IMG/VR virus record: IMGVR_UViG_3300028485_000059
Location: 1-5,507 of that record
DNA from: a virus
Taxonomy: Duplodnaviria; Heunggongvirae; Uroviricota; Caudoviricetes
Length of the DNA: 5,507 nucleotides
Direction: 5' to 3' (one strand)
Shown one piece after another: positions 1 to 5,507 of this stretch. Numbering within the stretch: the first letter of the stretch is position 1; each line of letters starts with the position of its first letter. The translations under genes and the position numbers were made by a program. The notes below the pieces were generated by a model. It had not been told where the DNA came from, ran no database searches, and was given only the letters and a program-made list of their open reading frames with translations.

Positions 1-103
1 AGAAACCGGAGAATGGCAGTGGACATTTCAGGTCGGGGACCTTGAAAACGTCAATATCACTCACTGGGCAGTAATGCCGAAAGCACCGGAGAATAAGAAA
101 TGA
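1..103 (+). CDS. 3' end of an upstream gene (partial; start lies outside the window)
   Basis: Frame open from base 2 to TGA at 101-103 (…ETGEWQWTFQVGDLENVNITHWAVMPKAPENKK*). The stop overlaps the next ATG (ATGA at 100-103), the same coupling pattern seen through the rest of the operon. No family recognised. Confidence 0.35.
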   Translation, partial: ETGEWQWTFQVGDLENVNITHWAVMPKAPENKK

Positions 104-303
104 GCGTGATAAAAACTCATACAGGAATTGTTATCACCCGAGACGGTCCGCAGGTAAAAAAACTGCACCAGACAAAGCGGATGTGGGTCGTCGGAAAAAA
201 CGAGTTTTACCACAAAGAAACCGGACGCCGCCACTTTGCAGAAAATACGCGCCGCCGACTGCTGATCGACAGCATCAAGCCTATCGAGGTGAAGCATGTT
301 TAA
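100..303 (+). CDS. hypothetical small phage protein (67 aa)
   Basis: ATG at 100 preceded by GGAGAA Shine-Dalgarno; stop TAA 301-303 overlaps the next start (ATGTTTAA). Part of the coupled operon. No motif recognised. Confidence 0.5.
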   Translation: MSVIKTHTGIVITRDGPQVKKLHQTKRMWVVGKNEFYHKETGRRHFAENTRRRLLIDSIKPIEVKHV

Positions 304-535
304 ACAGAACGAAAAATCTATCGCTCAAATTGCTGAGTATATCCCGCGTGCGTGCCGGGGTATGCAGTTGCAGGAAGCCAAAGCGCGCCTGGAGAAAAAA
401 ATTGCGCTCTATATCGATGACGGCTGTGATGCTGCCGTTCTTAACGCAGCGTTCGCGCCAGCTCTTAACAGTCATACGCGGGAGTCTTTTTTTTCGCGCA
501 TCGCAGCGCAGATCCGTAAAGGAGGCAACCAGTGA
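296..535 (+). CDS. hypothetical small phage protein (79 aa)
   Basis: ATG 296 with GAGGTGA Shine-Dalgarno 6 nt upstream; stop TGA 533-535 overlaps the GTG start of the next gene (GTGA). No motif recognised. Confidence 0.5.
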   Translation: MFKQNEKSIAQIAEYIPRACRGMQLQEAKARLEKKIALYIDDGCDAAVLNAAFAPALNSHTRESFFSRIAAQIRKGGNQ

Positions 536-1086
536 GCGAGATTAACTATCAGGCTCTGCGACTGGCGGCAGAAAATGCAACACCAGGCGAATGGTGTGCT
601 GATGACTACCATGGAGTAATTGCCGATGCCGGACTGAACGCCAATTACTACATAGCATCATGCTCAGGACCAGATAATCGCGCCAATAAACGATTCATAG
701 CCGCCGCCAATCCTGCCACCGTCTTGGCGCTGCTAGATGAGCTGGAAGCAGCAGAGAAGCGAAACGCTGAATTACAAAGCGAGAATGCATACATCCGCAA
801 CCGGTACAAAGAACTGGACCTATTAATCGGGAAAAACATTCTGGTCATGCAGGCTGCCATTATCGAATGGCAGGCAACTGGCGACGCTAAGAGCGGACTG
901 GCATGGATTTATAACACACTGTTTGGCCCTGGCGAATTACCGGACGAATCTGAGAAAGATGCTCAGGCCTACTTTAATCGCAAATATGCACCGATTGACG
1001 AAAAGCTCATGGCGCTTCACAAGTGGTTTTGGGAACAAAGTGAAGCCGAGCGCGCCGCCGCCAACATTGGTGTGAAGGGGAAGTGA
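532..1086 (+). CDS. Ead/Ea22-like family phage protein (184 aa)
   Basis: GTG start with strong AAAGGAGG Shine-Dalgarno. N-terminal QALRLAAENATPGEW and internal FIAAANPATVLALLDELEAAEKRNAEL match my recollection of the Ead/Ea22-like family of lambdoid/P22-like prophages. Assignment is from memory, not a search. Confidence 0.7.
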   Translation: MSEINYQALRLAAENATPGEWCADDYHGVIADAGLNANYYIASCSGPDNRANKRFIAAANPATVLALLDELEAAEKRNAELQSENAYIRNRYKELDLLIGKNILVMQAAIIEWQATGDAKSGLAWIYNTLFGPGELPDESEKDAQAYFNRKYAPIDEKLMALHKWFWEQSEAERAAANIGVKGK

Positions 1087-1087
1087 G

Positions 1088-1279
1088 ATGAACGGACAAA
1101 TCTCAATTGTTCGACCGGGAGCATGTGACGATTGCGAGATACGAATGATTATTCGTCTGGCGAGGGGGAAAACAATAACTGCTCTCATTACTCCTGAAAA
1201 TCTCGCATTAGCATTAACCGGAAAGTCAGACCTGCCAGTAGAGCTAAAGCTGCGAAATATTGAGATTAAAGTGAAATAG
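1088..1279 (+). CDS. hypothetical small phage protein (63 aa)
   Basis: ATG 1088 starts 2 nt after the upstream stop; AAGGGGAAG Shine-Dalgarno-like sequence. No motif recognised. Confidence 0.45.
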   Translation: MNGQISIVRPGACDDCEIRMIIRLARGKTITALITPENLALALTGKSDLPVELKLRNIEIKVK

Positions 1280-1281
1280 TT

Positions 1282-2040
1282 ATGAATACTCTTACCAAAG
1301 AATGGTTACAGAACACGATTACCGGAATTGAGTCGATAATAGACGATAAATCGTTTGTATGTAGTGAAATAGAATTCGAAATAGGTCAGGTTAACAACAT
1401 ACTTACCGCATTTAAAATTGCACTGGCATCGCTGGCAGCAGTATCGGATGAACGGGCAGCCTATGAATTATTTATGGAGAAGCGTTTCGGGGAATCTGTA
1501 GATCGCCGCAGGGCAAAAAATGGTGATAGAGAATACATGGCATGGGATATGGCGCTTGGCTGGATTATCTGGTGTCACCGCGCCGCCATGCTTCAGGGAG
1601 GCCAACCTGTAAACCAAACTTACAACTTGCCAGAATTAATCGAAGGCATGGAAGTTTCCATTGATGTTAGCACTTGTGATGCTGATTTAGGTAATCGCTA
1701 TTTCGGCACCGTCACCGAGGCGTTAGAACTTGATACAGCCAAGAATGGTTACATCCTCCTGGTTCAGGACGCAGAGCCTAACTTCGATGTAAATGGCAAC
1801 TCTCCGGGAACTCCGGATAGTTGGATAAGCTGTAGTGATCAAATGCCTGAAAAGGGCCAGAACGTGCTTATTTCGGTGAATTTCGATAGCTCTCTGGTTG
1901 AACCGCTAATATGCTCCGCACGCTATACCGGAAGCACCTTTCGGCGCGGAGATGCAACGATTAAGCCGGGTAATGGTATTGAGCAAGCAACTCACTGGAT
2001 GCCGCTACCGGAACCGCCGCAGGAGGTTAACCGTGGCTAA
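1282..2040 (+). CDS. DUF551 domain phage protein (252 aa; unassigned N-terminal region plus C-terminal DUF551)
   Basis: C-terminus WISCSDQMPEKGQNVLI…ATHWMPLPEPP matches the DUF551 signature as I recall it (W…LPE…THWMPLPEPP). Stop TAA 2038-2040 overlaps the downstream GTG start. Confidence 0.7.
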   Translation: MNTLTKEWLQNTITGIESIIDDKSFVCSEIEFEIGQVNNILTAFKIALASLAAVSDERAAYELFMEKRFGESVDRRRAKNGDREYMAWDMALGWIIWCHRAAMLQGGQPVNQTYNLPELIEGMEVSIDVSTCDADLGNRYFGTVTEALELDTAKNGYILLVQDAEPNFDVNGNSPGTPDSWISCSDQMPEKGQNVLISVNFDSSLVEPLICSARYTGSTFRRGDATIKPGNGIEQATHWMPLPEPPQEVNRG

Positions 2041-2314
2041 CCTGCAACTTGCCGTCAAAGGTGAATACTTCGATGCAATGATTCGCGGAGAGAAAACAGA
2101 AGAGTATCGCCTGTGTAATGACTACTGGAATAAGCGAATTATGTTCCGCGAGTATGACCGCCTGATTATCACAAAGGGATATCCGAAGCGCGACGACTAC
2201 AGCCGCAGAATTGATGTTCCGTATGACGGATATGAAATCAAGACAATCACACATCCACACTTCGGTGATAAACCGGTAAAGGTGTTCGCGATAAAGGTAA
2301 ATATTGATGGCTAA
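2033..2314 (+). CDS. ASCH/DUF3850-like (PUA-fold) domain protein (93 aa)
   Basis: The ORF track begins at 1952, but GTG at 2033 has a perfect AGGAGG Shine-Dalgarno 6 nt upstream and overlaps the previous stop (GTGGCTAA). N-terminal LQLAVKGEYFDAMIRGEKTEEYR resembles the ASCH/DUF3850 pattern (…YF..I..G.KT.E.R). Confidence 0.55.
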   Translation: MANLQLAVKGEYFDAMIRGEKTEEYRLCNDYWNKRIMFREYDRLIITKGYPKRDDYSRRIDVPYDGYEIKTITHPHFGDKPVKVFAIKVNIDG

Positions 2315-2645
2315 ATCAGCAGCAGAGCGCAAATCCGCTCAGAGAGCCAGACAAGCTGAATCCGGTGTACGTAAGCTGGAGATTGTGCTTGATGCTCAGG
2401 AAATTGAAATGCTGGAGCGTAACTGTGCCACGCGTCGCCCCGGGCGTGCGCCTTACGAATTTGGTGAGTATATAGCGTTACTGATCCGCCAGGATGATGT
2501 ACGCGTGCGCGGGCGTATAAAATCGATCAGCAGAAAACGTTGCGGTAAGTGCGGCGAGAGAGTTCCAGTTAATTCATGCCCGTGTAATGGTGACTCGCAA
2601 TGCTGGGTGACTAAAGGCTGGCATGAAACGAAATTAATAGTGTGA
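2307..2645 (+). CDS. hypothetical Cys-rich protein, putative DNA-binding/regulatory (112 aa)
   Basis: ATG 2307 overlaps the upstream stop (ATGGCTAA). C-terminal cysteine cluster CGKCGERVPVNSCPCNGDSQCW (C-x2-C-x9-C-x-C-x5-C) looks like a zinc ribbon. N-terminal RKLEIVLDAQEIEMLERN…YEFGEYIALLIRQ has strand-helix-helix character. Last gene before the terminase leader. Confidence 0.55.
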   Translation: MAKSAAERKSAQRARQAESGVRKLEIVLDAQEIEMLERNCATRRPGRAPYEFGEYIALLIRQDDVRVRGRIKSISRKRCGKCGERVPVNSCPCNGDSQCWVTKGWHETKLIV

Positions 2646-2653
2646 CATGTCAC
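2642..2653. promoter_or_regulatory. 12-bp perfect palindrome GTGACATGTCAC (copy 1), candidate protein-binding site
   Basis: Perfect dyad overlapping the stop codon of the Cys-rich gene. The 14-mer TGTGACATGTCACG recurs exactly at 4905-4918. Confidence 0.5.
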
Positions 2654-2693
2654 GAGTAGATTATGCATGATGAATTTGATGGTTTTGAATACT

Positions 2694-2720
2694 GCCGCCA
2701 ACTATGGCGGCTTTATTTTG
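2694..2720 (+). terminator. rho-independent terminator in the terS leader
   Basis: 7-bp GC-rich stem GCCGCCA / TGGCGGC (2694-2700, 2705-2711) with ACTA loop, followed by TTTATTTT (2712-2719). Confidence 0.65.
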
Positions 2721-2723
2721 CAT

Positions 2724-2754
2724 GGTACTATTACCAAAACGGTAACTATTACCA
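2724..2754. repeat. two tandem dyad-symmetric sites (GGTACTATTACCA / GGTAACTATTACCA) just upstream of terS
   Basis: Exact 10-mer ACTATTACCA at 2727-2736 and 2745-2754 (period 18 bp). Each unit is internally palindromic (GGTA-CTAT-TACC and GGTAA-CTA-TTACC). Confidence 0.5.
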
Positions 2755-2762
2755 CGGTGGTT

Positions 2763-3359
2763 ATGATGCCTGCTGAACCTAAAACCTATAAACGCAAATC
2801 AACGCAATTTAAGCCACTAACAGCAATGCAGGAGGCTTATTGCCAGTCATACATCAAAACGCCTGAAAACCAGACTCAGGCAGCGATTAATGCAGGATTC
2901 TCCCCAAATACAGCGGCAGTTAAAGCCAGTGTAATGATGCGCGATGAACGCATTCAAAAACGGATTGCCGAGTTGATGGAGGAGCGCAACAAACGAATGC
3001 GCGTCAGTGCTGATTACGTTCTCATGCGCCTGGTGGAGATCGACCAGATGGACGTGATCGACATCCTCAGCGACGATGGGAGCCTTAAACCAATCCATGA
3101 GTGGCCGAAAATCTGGCGCACTACGCTTAGCGGCTTTGATCTGTCATCGACCATCATGAACATGAACGAGGATTCGATAGAGACAATCCTCAAAAAAATT
3201 AAATGGCCTGACAAGGTGAAGAACCTCGAACTGATTGGTAAGCACGTCGACGTCAACGCGTTCAAAGAACGCATGGATGTTAATGTGAATGTGACAATCG
3301 CTGATCGCATAGCAGCAGCCAGGAAGCGACTCAAAGAACGTCAGGATGGTAATCAGTGA
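2763..3359 (+). CDS. terS: terminase small subunit (Terminase_2-like)
   Basis: QTQAAINAGFSPNTAAVKASVMMRDERIQKRIAEL matches the helix-turn-helix signature of Terminase_2-type small subunits. Stop overlaps the terL GTG start (GTGA at 3356-3359). Start set at ATG 2763 (ATG 2766 also possible) rather than the track's 2667, because 2667-2762 holds the terminator hairpin and the dyad repeats. Confidence 0.75.
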   Translation: MMPAEPKTYKRKSTQFKPLTAMQEAYCQSYIKTPENQTQAAINAGFSPNTAAVKASVMMRDERIQKRIAELMEERNKRMRVSADYVLMRLVEIDQMDVIDILSDDGSLKPIHEWPKIWRTTLSGFDLSSTIMNMNEDSIETILKKIKWPDKVKNLELIGKHVDVNAFKERMDVNVNVTIADRIAAARKRLKERQDGNQ

Positions 3360-4831
3360 CAGATACAGCGTTATCTCCTGAAGAGCAGTTGATCGAGGAT
3401 ATTGCAGGGTTCACTCACGATCCGCTTGGCTATGCCCTCTATGCGTTCCCGTGGGGGGAAGAGGGGACTGAATTAGCACATGCCACCGGTCCACGTCAGT
3501 GGCAAGCCGATGCGTTCCGAGAGATACGTGATCACCTGCAGAATCCAGAGACGCGCCATCAGCCGCTTATGCTGGCACGCGCTTCGGGGCACGGTATTGG
3601 TAAATCAGCATTCATCTCAATGCTGATCAACTGGGGCATGTCCACTTGCGAGGATTGTAAGGTCGTGGTGACCGCCAACACCGAAAACCAGCTACGAACG
3701 AAGACCTGGCCGGAAATTATCAAGTGGTCGAACCTTGCTATCACGAAAGACTGGTTTACCTGTACCGCTACCGAGATGTACAGCAATGATCCTGGGCACG
3801 ACAAGCGGTGGCGAGCTGACGCAATCCCCTGGTCTGAGCACAACACTGAGGCATTCGCCGGACTACACAACGAGCGTAAACGCATCATCGTGGTATTTGA
3901 TGAAGCGTCGAACATTGCGGATCTGGTGTGGGAAGTTGCCGAGGGTGCGCTAACGGACGAAGACACTGAGATTATCTGGGTGGCGTTCGGAAACCCTACA
4001 CGTAACACCGGGCGTTTTCGCGAATGTTTCCGCAAATATAAACACCGCTGGAAAACTGCGCAGATTGACAGCCGGACGGTGGAAGGCACTAACAAACAGC
4101 AGTTGCAGAAATGGGTTGATGACTACGGGGAAGACAGCGACTTCGTTAAAATCCGTGTGCGCGGCATATTCCCTGATGCATCTGAATTGCAGTTTATCCC
4201 TACCGGACTTACTGACGAGGCAATGAAACGGGTGATAACCGCTGCGCAGGTGGCACATGCTCCGGTGATAATCGGCGTTGACCCGGCATACTCTGGTGTT
4301 GATGACGCTGTGATATACCTGCGGCAGGGGCTGCACAGTAAGGTGCTGTGGACTGGCAACAAGACCACTGACGATCTGATTATGGCGAAGCGTATCGCTG
4401 ACTTTGAAGACCAGTACCAGGCTGACGCAGTGTTCATCGACTTCGGTTACGGAACTGGTCTGAAGTCAATCGGTGACGGCTGGGGGCGTACATGGCAACT
4501 TGTTCCGTTCGGTGGCGCGTCTACTGACCCACAGATGCTCAACAAGCGTGGAGAGATGTTCAACTCATGCAAGACATGGCTGAGGCTGGGCGGCATGCTT
4601 GATGACCAGGAAACAGCGGACGATCTGTCGGCGGCAGAGTACAAAGTTCGAGTGGACGGTAAAATCGTTATCGAACCGAAGGAAGATATCAAAGAACGAC
4701 TTGGGCGTTCTCCTGGTAAAGGCGATGCGCTACTGCTGACGTTTGCGTTCCCTGTGTCGAAGCGTCTGCGAATTCCCGGTCAGCAGAACCAGCAAGGCAA
4801 TGCCATCACAGATTACGATCCCTATGCTTAA
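3356..4831 (+). CDS. terL: terminase large subunit (ATPase plus nuclease), 491 aa
   Basis: Walker A-like ASGHGIGKS, Walker B RIIVVFDEAS, and C-terminal RNase H-like nuclease motif VIIGVDPAYSG…DDAV. Length and position directly after terS fit. GTG start coupled to the terS stop. Confidence 0.9.
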   Translation: MTDTALSPEEQLIEDIAGFTHDPLGYALYAFPWGEEGTELAHATGPRQWQADAFREIRDHLQNPETRHQPLMLARASGHGIGKSAFISMLINWGMSTCEDCKVVVTANTENQLRTKTWPEIIKWSNLAITKDWFTCTATEMYSNDPGHDKRWRADAIPWSEHNTEAFAGLHNERKRIIVVFDEASNIADLVWEVAEGALTDEDTEIIWVAFGNPTRNTGRFRECFRKYKHRWKTAQIDSRTVEGTNKQQLQKWVDDYGEDSDFVKIRVRGIFPDASELQFIPTGLTDEAMKRVITAAQVAHAPVIIGVDPAYSGVDDAVIYLRQGLHSKVLWTGNKTTDDLIMAKRIADFEDQYQADAVFIDFGYGTGLKSIGDGWGRTWQLVPFGGASTDPQMLNKRGEMFNSCKTWLRLGGMLDDQETADDLSAAEYKVRVDGKIVIEPKEDIKERLGRSPGKGDALLLTFAFPVSKRLRIPGQQNQQGNAITDYDPYA

Positions 4832-4870
4832 TCCGCTGGTGGGGATAATGTCGTTGATATCCTCTGGTGA

Positions 4871-4907
4871 GGATAAAACAAAGCCAGCTCATAGGCTGGC
4901 TGTTTGT
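4871..4907. terminator. bidirectional intrinsic terminator between convergent terL and the DUF2829 gene
   Basis: Stem AGCCAGC / GCTGGCT (4882-4888, 4895-4901), loop TCATAG. On the - strand it is followed by UUUGUUUUAU (strong); on the + strand by GUUUGU (weaker). A second hairpin TATCCTC-TGGT-GAGGATA lies at 4858-4875. Confidence 0.6.
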
Positions 4908-4917
4908 GACATGTCAC
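4906..4917. promoter_or_regulatory. 12-bp perfect palindrome GTGACATGTCAC (copy 2)
   Basis: Exact repeat of the 14-mer TGTGACATGTCACG seen at 2641-2654; sits between the bidirectional terminator and the stop of the - strand DUF2829 gene. Confidence 0.5.
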
Positions 4918-4921
4918 GGTG

Positions 4922-5218
4922 TTATTGAATTACAATCCAATCATCAGATAGCAGATCGGTTTGAGATGCCAGCCACGGTACAAAGCAACCGTCAGCAGTT
5001 TTCATCCCAATCCACGGTAGAAGTTTAACGCCAGGTACAAATGTATACTCGTCACCGCATGTAACGTCAAATCGCCAATCGTTCGGAGTGGCCGATTGCG
5101 GTGGCTTAACCAGTTGCAGATACATGCCTTTGCCATTCCATCCGGCACGTGCAATGCGCTTACCATCTTTGAGTGATGACAAAGCAGTGGAGAAAGATAC
5201 TGTTGATGTTTCGCTCAT
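4922..5218 (-). CDS. DUF2829 family protein (Tad2-like; candidate anti-defence protein), 98 aa
   Basis: ATG at 5218 (- strand) with AAGGTGAG Shine-Dalgarno. Motifs ARAGWNGKGMYLQL and KTADGCFVPWLASQTDLLSDDWIVI match the DUF2829 signature as I recall it (GWNGKGM…MKTADG…PWLASQTDMLAEDW). Flanked by intrinsic terminators on both sides and on the opposite strand to the terminase operon. Confidence 0.7.
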   Translation of the reverse strand: MSETSTVSFSTALSSLKDGKRIARAGWNGKGMYLQLVKPPQSATPNDWRFDVTCGDEYTFVPGVKLLPWIGMKTADGCFVPWLASQTDLLSDDWIVIQ

Positions 5219-5229
5219 AATCTCACCTT

Positions 5230-5253
5230 AAAAAAATGCCCGGCGAACCGGGC
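5230..5253 (-). terminator. rho-independent terminator (T2) immediately upstream of the DUF2829 gene
   Basis: On the - strand: GCCCGG-UUCG-CCGGGC (6-bp GC stem, UUCG tetraloop) followed by A + U7, then directly the Shine-Dalgarno of the DUF2829 gene. Confidence 0.7.
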
Positions 5254-5330
5254 GAACTGGAAGCAATGAGTTATGCCTTCCGTTGCTGTACGGGTTTACA
5301 GCATGAAGTCATCGCAATGGCGTCCTGCTG

Positions 5331-5373
5331 TAAAAAGGGCGGTGATAGTCCTTCAAGGGAAACCATCACCGCC
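5331..5373 (-). terminator. rho-independent terminator (T1) downstream of the tRNA gene
   Basis: On the - strand: 9-bp stem GGCGGTGAT / ATCACCGCC (5365-5373 / 5338-5346) around an 18-nt partly paired loop, followed by CUUUUUAC. Lies about 43 nt past the tRNA 3' end. Confidence 0.6.
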
Positions 5374-5416
5374 AAGCACCTGGAACTTCTGGCATCACGG
5401 TCCTTAGGCGTGATTC

Positions 5417-5493
5417 TGGCGTGGCATGCAGGATTCGAACCTGCGACCAACCGCTTAGAAGGCGGTTGCTCTGTCCAGCTGAGCTAATGCCAC
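5417..5493 (-). tRNA. tRNA-Arg (anticodon UCU), 77 nt including encoded CCA
   Basis: Reverse complement folds as a cloverleaf: acceptor GTGGCAT/ATGCCAC (7 bp), D-arm GCTC…GAGC, anticodon stem ACCGC/GCGGT with loop CU-UCU-AA, T-arm GCAGG-TTCGAAT-CCTGC, discriminator G, CCA. T-arm matches enterobacterial argU as recalled, but the acceptor and anticodon stems differ. Confidence 0.85.
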
Positions 5494-5507
5494 AACGCTG
5501 AGAGCAC

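Follow-up and report, generated by a model that had tools for sequence, protein, structure and literature searches.

In a lambda lysogen, the terminase and other late genes are silent indirectly: the repressor blocks the early promoters, and the activator of the late genes is never made. In mycobacteriophage L5, approximately 30 stoperators, the sites bound by the repressor gp71, are spread across early and late operons and silence the prophage genome; they are asymmetric 13-base-pair (bp) sites that are oriented with transcription and act on elongation. Here we analyzed the leader of the small terminase subunit gene, terS, in a stretch of viral DNA of 5,507 nucleotides (nt; IMG/VR record IMGVR_UViG_3300028485_000059, positions 1 to 5,507), hereafter the window. 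By megablast, the window belongs with the temperate podophages of the epsilon15/phiV10 group (genus Uetakevirus) and with the numerous prophages of this group in E. coli. The packaging genes and other late operons seem, as in epsilon15, to be directly preceded by prophage-repressor sites of their own. The closest described counterparts are the predicted repressor sites of epsilon15 (GenBank AY150271.2) and the SPC32H repressor Rep (PDB 5D50), with which the locus shares the dyad TTACC-N5-GGTAA, which follows closely on a terminator and precedes the terS ATG by 20 nt. Compared with epsilon15, the window represents an E. coli member in which the second, imperfect dyad has its mismatch in the right half, and the epsilon15 record marks one site and no promoter. 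The arrangement is a further E. coli example of a layout already predicted in the epsilon15 annotation.

The gap before terS measures 117-120 bp, from the stop codon of the upstream open reading frame (ORF) at 2643-2645 to an ATG at 2763 or 2766. An earlier reading of these letters by a model, the original prediction, had reported this 117-bp gap correctly and had treated its palindrome, intrinsic terminator and two dyads as a possible antitermination or repression checkpoint. The gap is an ordinary operon boundary that joins three separable modules, and not one device. For comparison we collected 97 leaders (31 distinct sequences) from IMG/VR, four phage genomes and prophages of ten other genera (Pseudocitrobacter, two species of Citrobacter, Klebsiella, ‘Ca. 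Erwinia dacicola’, Scandinavium, Superficieibacter, Kluyvera, Pseudescherichia and Buttiauxella), from which 15 representatives were aligned.

Two dyads, O1 and O2, can be found between the terminator and terS (Table 1). O1 matches TTACC-N5-GGTAA exactly and O2, which starts 18 bp downstream, matches nine of the ten half-site bases and covers both the Shine-Dalgarno sequence GGTGG (2756-2760) and the first base of the ATG at 2763. At up to one mismatch, these are two matches in the window against 0.09 expected. The original prediction had noticed the shared sequence ACTATTACCA, which does occur at 2727-2736 and 2745-2754, 18 bp apart, but the dyads that it drew were out of register: GGTA-N4-TACC and GGTA-N5-TACC, with their unequal spacers, are the junctions between the real sites. 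Across the leaders, the half-sites of O1 never vary, but their spacer is found in at least nine forms (AAAAC, ACAAC, ATAAC, ACAAT, AAAAT, TTCAT, AAATC, ATATT and TAAAA), which is the signature of a protein-bound dyad. In most relatives O2 reads TTACT-N5-GGTAA and in the window TTACC-N5-GGTTA; both forms retain nine of ten bases, with the mismatch in opposite halves.

The same dyad recurs throughout these genomes. We scanned six complete Uetakevirus genomes (phiV10, PAS61, epsilon15, SPN1S, TL-2011b and Klebsiella phage BUCT711) and found 8-11 exact copies in each, where about 0.05 would be expected by chance and shuffled sequences gave at most 0.065. When spacers of 0-11 were scanned, N5 alone was enriched, and no other spacer gave more than a single stray match in any genome; the temperate phages N15 and Yersinia YenM_31.17, which are unrelated, had no copy of TTACC-N5-GGTAA. 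Nearly all exact copies are located in intergenic leaders, the few exceptions being in TL-2011b. They head terS, the portal/head operon, the tailspike/antirepressor region, the lysis operon and the post-replication operon, and the repressor gene has two to three further copies on either side, in an immunity region that falls outside the window. In the epsilon15 record, the homologous 16 bp are annotated as ‘protein_bind: repressor’. The phiV10 repressor gp40, which was tested as a relative in place of the window, is a full-length homologue of SPC32H Rep (E = 4e-42), and the close relatives of the window carry the same repressor family as the epsilon15/SPC32H lineage. SPC32H Rep binds DNA as a tetramer, and one tetramer suffices for repression (review, PMC9638917).

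We infer from these distributions that O1 and O2 are operators of the prophage repressor, with a Rep homologue as their putative binder, which agrees with one of the two roles that had originally been offered for the dyads. The other role, recognition by TerS, would make the tandem sites a packaging (pac) site, and packaging sites are indeed often found in or next to terS, while the 18-bp phasing of the two sites would suit such a function. Yet a series of headful packaging events requires just one initiation site, and an identical motif that occurs 8-11 times per genome, flanking the repressor gene and heading the portal, tailspike and lysis operons, makes this function very unlikely.

Directly after the T-tract of the terminator, and running into O1, is the sequence TGgTACTAT, a candidate extended -10 promoter for sigma-70 with a predicted start at about 2738, inside O1. 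It has the sequence features of an extended -10 element, namely a TG at -15/-14, one free base and a hexamer with A at its second and T at its sixth position. All 15 aligned leaders, from at least ten genera, have the bases TG-n-TA-n-TAT unchanged, including three in which the terminator is missing and a different gene abuts. Among the 31 leader variants, the element varies solely where the extended -10 form is itself degenerate, at two positions (TGtTACTAT, TGgTATTAT, TGaTACTAT and TGnTAGTAT), with hexamers that match the consensus at four to five of six positions. O1 has no mirror image of these bases on its opposite side, so the element is not simply part of a longer operator. It had been stated that no convincing -35/-10 pair could be identified; this holds for the -35, but the conserved candidate extended -10 had been overlooked. 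We also considered a sigma-70 promoter spanning O1 (TTGCAT-17-GGTAAC) and ranked it below the extended -10 reading, as its -35 is not conserved in the leaders without a terminator. The ZX5 paper gives no promoter coordinates.

Upstream of this element, the original prediction of an intrinsic terminator was borne out. The hairpin has a 7-bp stem with six G-C pairs, an ACTA loop and the tail TTTATTTT, in which seven of eight bases are T. Its folding energy of -13.8 kcal/mol (z = -3.8) was equalled in none of 200 shuffles, and it is the best plus-strand terminator candidate of the window. It is conserved in 12 of the 15 representative leaders, across at least ten genera, with only G-U changes, and the homologous hairpin is annotated as a rho-independent terminator in the epsilon15 record. 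On this structure and its conservation, its predicted function is to close the early-right operon. It is absent from leaders L088 and L091 and from phage BUCT711, where the inserted sequence consists of a LexA-box promoter and a UmuD’-like gene that runs into the terS operators.

An intrinsic terminator followed after 11-13 nt by an operator can also be seen at two other rightward early operon junctions (phiV10 33078-33126 and 35038-35084; epsilon15 35880-35921), which suggests that this layout is a general operon-boundary design in this phage group.

Taken with the operators, these elements point to a model, which we consider probable, in which the early-right operon is ended by the terminator and the terminase operon has an extended -10 promoter of its own that is occluded by repressor at O1 and O2. 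The palindrome would be a cis site at the 3′ end of the upstream cysteine-rich (Cys-rich) regulator gene, outside terminase control, and the hairpin with its T-tract would end the early-right operon. The terminase control region would begin immediately after the T-tract, with the extended -10 sigma-70 promoter starting transcription at about 2738 within O1 and the weaker O2 placed 18 bp further on, over the ribosome-binding site. The lysogen would have its prophage repressor, the homologue of SPC32H Rep, bound to both operators, which would block initiation as well as read-through from upstream, so that terS and the large subunit gene terL stay silent; induction would inactivate the repressor and allow the terS promoter to fire. 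If this is correct, the operons of these prophages, which are common in E. coli, Salmonella and Klebsiella, would each be switched off individually, which would matter for the engineering of reporter phages of the phiV10 and SPC32H type and for predicting leaky prophage gene expression.

Several observations weigh against this model. The -10 hexamer of the window matches the consensus at only four of six positions and has no -35, and a simple promoter scan of the window did not call TGgTACTAT. O2 is degenerate in Kluyvera and BUCT711. The operator sequence is the same in all relatives examined, and offers no contrast in which repressor and operator could be seen to covary. Finally, the motif CATATGTGGTTT is found downstream of the operators in other late operons and is absent from the terS leader; late regulation is therefore more complex than simple repression.

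The motif CATATGTGGTTT and its variants, a second conserved motif of these genomes, are located approximately 40-45 nt downstream of the operators in the portal, tailspike, lysis and post-replication leaders (phiV10 3300-3320, 20922, 24740 and 35115; epsilon15 24752 and 35954). In the lysis leader it is flanked by a TTAACC -35-like element and a TATAAT -10. A regulator of late genes may bind this motif.

The same operators could also work purely as roadblocks. O1 and O2 would then be repressor sites with no local promoter, terS and terL would be expressed by read-through of a leaky terminator, and in the lysogen the repressor would stop this read-through as at the L5 stoperators. The likeness to L5 is that one prophage repressor has many sites genome-wide, including at structural and packaging genes and beyond the immunity region. 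The sites themselves differ from the stoperators: only 8-11 are present, they are symmetric dyads of 15 bp and they are located at the heads of transcription units, with the terS copy overlapping a promoter-like element. A roadblock would fit the recurrence of a terminator, about 12 nt and an operator at two other rightward operon junctions in phiV10 and epsilon15, the weakness of the promoter-like element by consensus, its absence from the promoter calls, and the way in which the LexA-box promoter and UmuD’-like gene of L088, L091 and BUCT711 lead into the operators without a terminator. Against it stands the invariance across genera of TG-n-TA-n-TAT, which is unmirrored beyond O1 and so no extension of the operator, and a strong hairpin with a T tract of seven in eight speaks against routine read-through. 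We regard a roadblock without a promoter as rather unlikely.

A terminator ahead of late genes had also invited comparison with the lambda Q/pR′/qut/tR′ arrangement, in which case the Cys-rich protein or another factor would permit read-through into the terminase genes. The likeness is in the order of the parts: the Cys-rich gene is a small, regulator-like gene in the position of Q, last before the late genes, a DNA site follows it directly, and a terminator separates it from terS. However, the Cys-rich protein matches neither Q nor any other antiterminator family, and the sole conserved promoter-like element is downstream of the terminator; a promoter scan of 2642-2694 gave chance-level matches only, and the interval between palindrome and terminator holds no promoter-like element above chance. 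Neither the length nor the sequence of this interval is conserved, the other copies of the palindrome are at operon ends and not at starts, and some relatives do without the terminator: L088, L091 and BUCT711, three of the five leaders with inserted genes, have lost it and keep the operators. Antitermination of this kind is thus very improbable at this locus, and the lambda analogy of the original prediction is not supported.

Between palindrome and terminator, the window has approximately 40 nt of a gene relic, epsilon15 has 22 unrelated nt, and other genera have whole genes. At exactly the position of the relic, approximately 25 IMG/VR relatives have a 70-aa (amino acid) ORF that ends in FYDEFDGL and a stop codon, and 2663-2686 is therefore best read as the relic of a lost gene at a mosaic joint. 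In phiV10, a mini-ORF at the relic position reads MHDEFDGF before its stop and ends 5 nt before the terminator. Relative to phiV10, the window has a 1-nt deletion (GGG to GG, at about 2684) that removes this stop and creates a spurious 37-aa ORF (2663-2776). The mini-ORF, ending so near the terminator, had suggested a translated leader peptide for ribosome-mediated attenuation, and it shows synonymous third-position changes in four genera. This reading was largely rejected because of the 70-aa gene at the same spot in the approximately 25 relatives; the mini-ORF is also frameshifted in the window and six of about 80 close relatives, and absent from epsilon15 and SPN1S.

The comparison also bears on where terS begins. 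The longest terS ORF (2667-3359) traverses the terminator and the operators, and such extended starts are annotated in the phiV10, PAS61 and SPN1S records. Indels of 1-2 nt occur among the relatives between O1 and the terS ATG, and the stretch upstream of the ATG of the conserved MPAEP sequence is therefore non-coding. From this we place the predicted true start of terS at the conserved MPAEP ATG (2766), not at 2667, which corrects the start-site annotation in the three records.

The palindrome at the upstream end of the gap, GTGACATGTCAC, is present as had been reported, but it does not belong to the terminase leader. Two exact copies of this perfect 12-bp palindrome flank terS and terL in the window (Table 1); at up to two mismatches, the same two matches compare with 0.17 expected from shuffles, and two were reached in one of 200 shuffles. 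The Cys-rich gene is present in all ten other genera, with the palindrome over its TGA stop codon in eight of the ten loci. In five of these loci a gene is inserted between the Cys-rich gene and terS: the operators are beside terS in all five, and the palindrome is beside the Cys-rich gene in four, the fifth having a one-mismatch copy after the inserted gene. Since the palindrome stays with the upstream gene when genes are inserted before terS, it is not part of the terminase leader. The first position of the phiV10 record, which corresponds to 2646 of the window and lies inside the palindrome, was considered as a cos/pac genome end and rejected, as the record was merely opened after the last stop codon.

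The association of gene and palindrome extends well beyond Uetakevirus. By tblastn, members of the Cys-rich family were found in 158 phage records, mostly of Enterobacterales, Vibrio and Aeromonas phages. Among IMG/VR loci, GTGAC-N2-GTCAC lies over the stop codon of the Cys-rich gene in 75 of 78 epsilon15-like, 49 of 49 N15-like and 47 of 50 Yersinia P2-like loci, and there were no occurrences elsewhere in 393 kb of flanking sequence from these loci. The site overlaps the stop codon in N15 gp46 (34% protein identity, GTGACTGGTCAC), Yersinia P2-like YenM_31.17 (42%, TGTGACGCGTCACA), Klebsiella Kpn74 (38%, GTGACTGGTCAC) and Vibrio phage 10N.237.312.C11 (35%, GTGACAGGTCAC), and in Pectobacterium ZF40 (65%, TGTGACATGTCACA) it is found 2 nt after the stop. 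The palindrome overlaps the stop of its own gene in podovirus, siphovirus and myovirus lineages that share just 34-42% protein identity. N15 and four of the six fetched Uetakevirus genomes each have three copies, always with a 2-nt centre; copies elsewhere include phiV10 19493, epsilon15 19517 and N15 28550, 33237 and 39269. In Uetakevirus, the other two copies are found close to terminators, at a distance of 1-5 nt: one terminator closes the terminase operon and the other the long structural operon. In SPN1S, the last lysis gene has a copy over its stop codon that matches at 10 of 12 positions.

The protein itself corresponds to PHROG 536, ‘transcriptional regulator’. It had no family match in Pfam or NCBIfam, including the Q-antiterminator families, and a sequence and profile search of the PDB found nothing. 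Its predicted secondary structure fits a ribbon-helix-helix followed by a C-terminal CxxC...CxC, while its AlphaFold2 (AF2) model is of low confidence (predicted local distance difference test, pLDDT, of 62), and a Foldseek search of the PDB with this low-confidence monomer gave nothing below E = 4. A literature search found no paper containing the palindrome sequence. Given the position of the palindrome across these lineages, the Cys-rich protein family probably recognizes it as its cognate site. We tentatively suggest that GTGAC-N2-GTCAC and the PHROG 536 protein form a conserved gene-plus-site module, whose protein may be an undescribed site-specific DNA binder. Such a protein could serve as a marker or insulator of operon ends; alternatively, it could control its own expression by stopping polymerase at the 3′ end of the gene that encodes it. 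This module is more novel than the terS control region and offers a testable handle on a widespread, uncharacterized phage protein family.

The half-sites of the palindrome, GTGAC and GTCAC, are identical to those of matS, the 13-bp site of E. coli MatP (GTGACRNYGTCAC; PMC6907758, Table 2). The phage palindrome differs in being 12 bp long with a 2-bp centre in place of 3, which brings the half-sites one base closer, and no N3-centred copies of GTGAC/GTCAC were found in eight phage genomes. A MatP-like ribbon-helix-helix fold was considered for the Cys-rich protein and rejected: besides the low pLDDT and the empty Foldseek and PDB profile searches, an hhalign comparison with MatP gave a probability of 0.1%.

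In some relatives, the palindrome is directly followed by a strong sigma-70 promoter (BUCT711, reverse complement, 37938-37990; L088 3044-3100; YenM_31.17 2960-3000), with the form TTGACT-17-TATACT and a LexA box CTGT-N8-ACAG. This promoter drives the UmuD’-like gene, thereby placed under SOS control, in L088 and L091 and a small gene in Yersinia phage YenM_31.17.

Table 1. Features of the window around the terminase operon, with positions counted from its first nucleotide.
Feature	Position	Strand	Remarks
Accessory early-right genes (Ead/Ea22, DUF551, ASCH-type ORF)			Upstream of the Cys-rich ORF
Cys-rich 112-aa ORF	2307-2645	+	Last gene of the early-right operon; homologues epsilon15 gp49, phiV10 gp55, N15 gp46
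Palindrome GTGACATGTCAC	2642-2653		Overlaps the TGA stop of the Cys-rich gene
Relic of accessory-gene 3′ end (ATG CAT GAT GAA TTT GAT GG...)	2663-2686	+	
Predicted intrinsic terminator of the early-right operon	2694-2719	+	Stem 2694-2700/2705-2711, loop ACTA, T-tract 2712-2719
Candidate extended -10 element TGgTACTAT	2723-2731	+	TG 2723-2724; hexamer TACTAT 2726-2731
Putative operator O1 TTACCAAAACGGTAA (TTACC-N5-GGTAA)	2731-2745		Exact, 15 bp
Putative operator O2 TTACCACGGTGGTTA	2749-2763		9/10 half-site bases
terS, small terminase subunit (Terminase_2)	2766-3359	+	
terL, large terminase subunit	3356-4831	+	So annotated in phiV10 and epsilon15
Bidirectional terminator hairpin	4882-4901		Between terL and the convergent minus-strand gene
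Palindrome GTGACATGTCAC, second copy	4906-4917		4 nt past the terL terminator hairpin; 4 nt from the stop of the minus-strand gene
Tad2-like gene (Thoeris anti-defence 2, PF11195, E = 3e-24)	4922-5218	-	Convergent
tRNA-Arg(TCT)	5417-5493	-	

Downstream of the terminase genes, the Tad2-like gene and tRNA-Arg(TCT), the sole match in an Rfam scan, form a convergent accessory unit that separates terL from the portal operon. Between the tRNA and the start codon of the Tad2-like gene is a strong minus-strand terminator (5253-5238).

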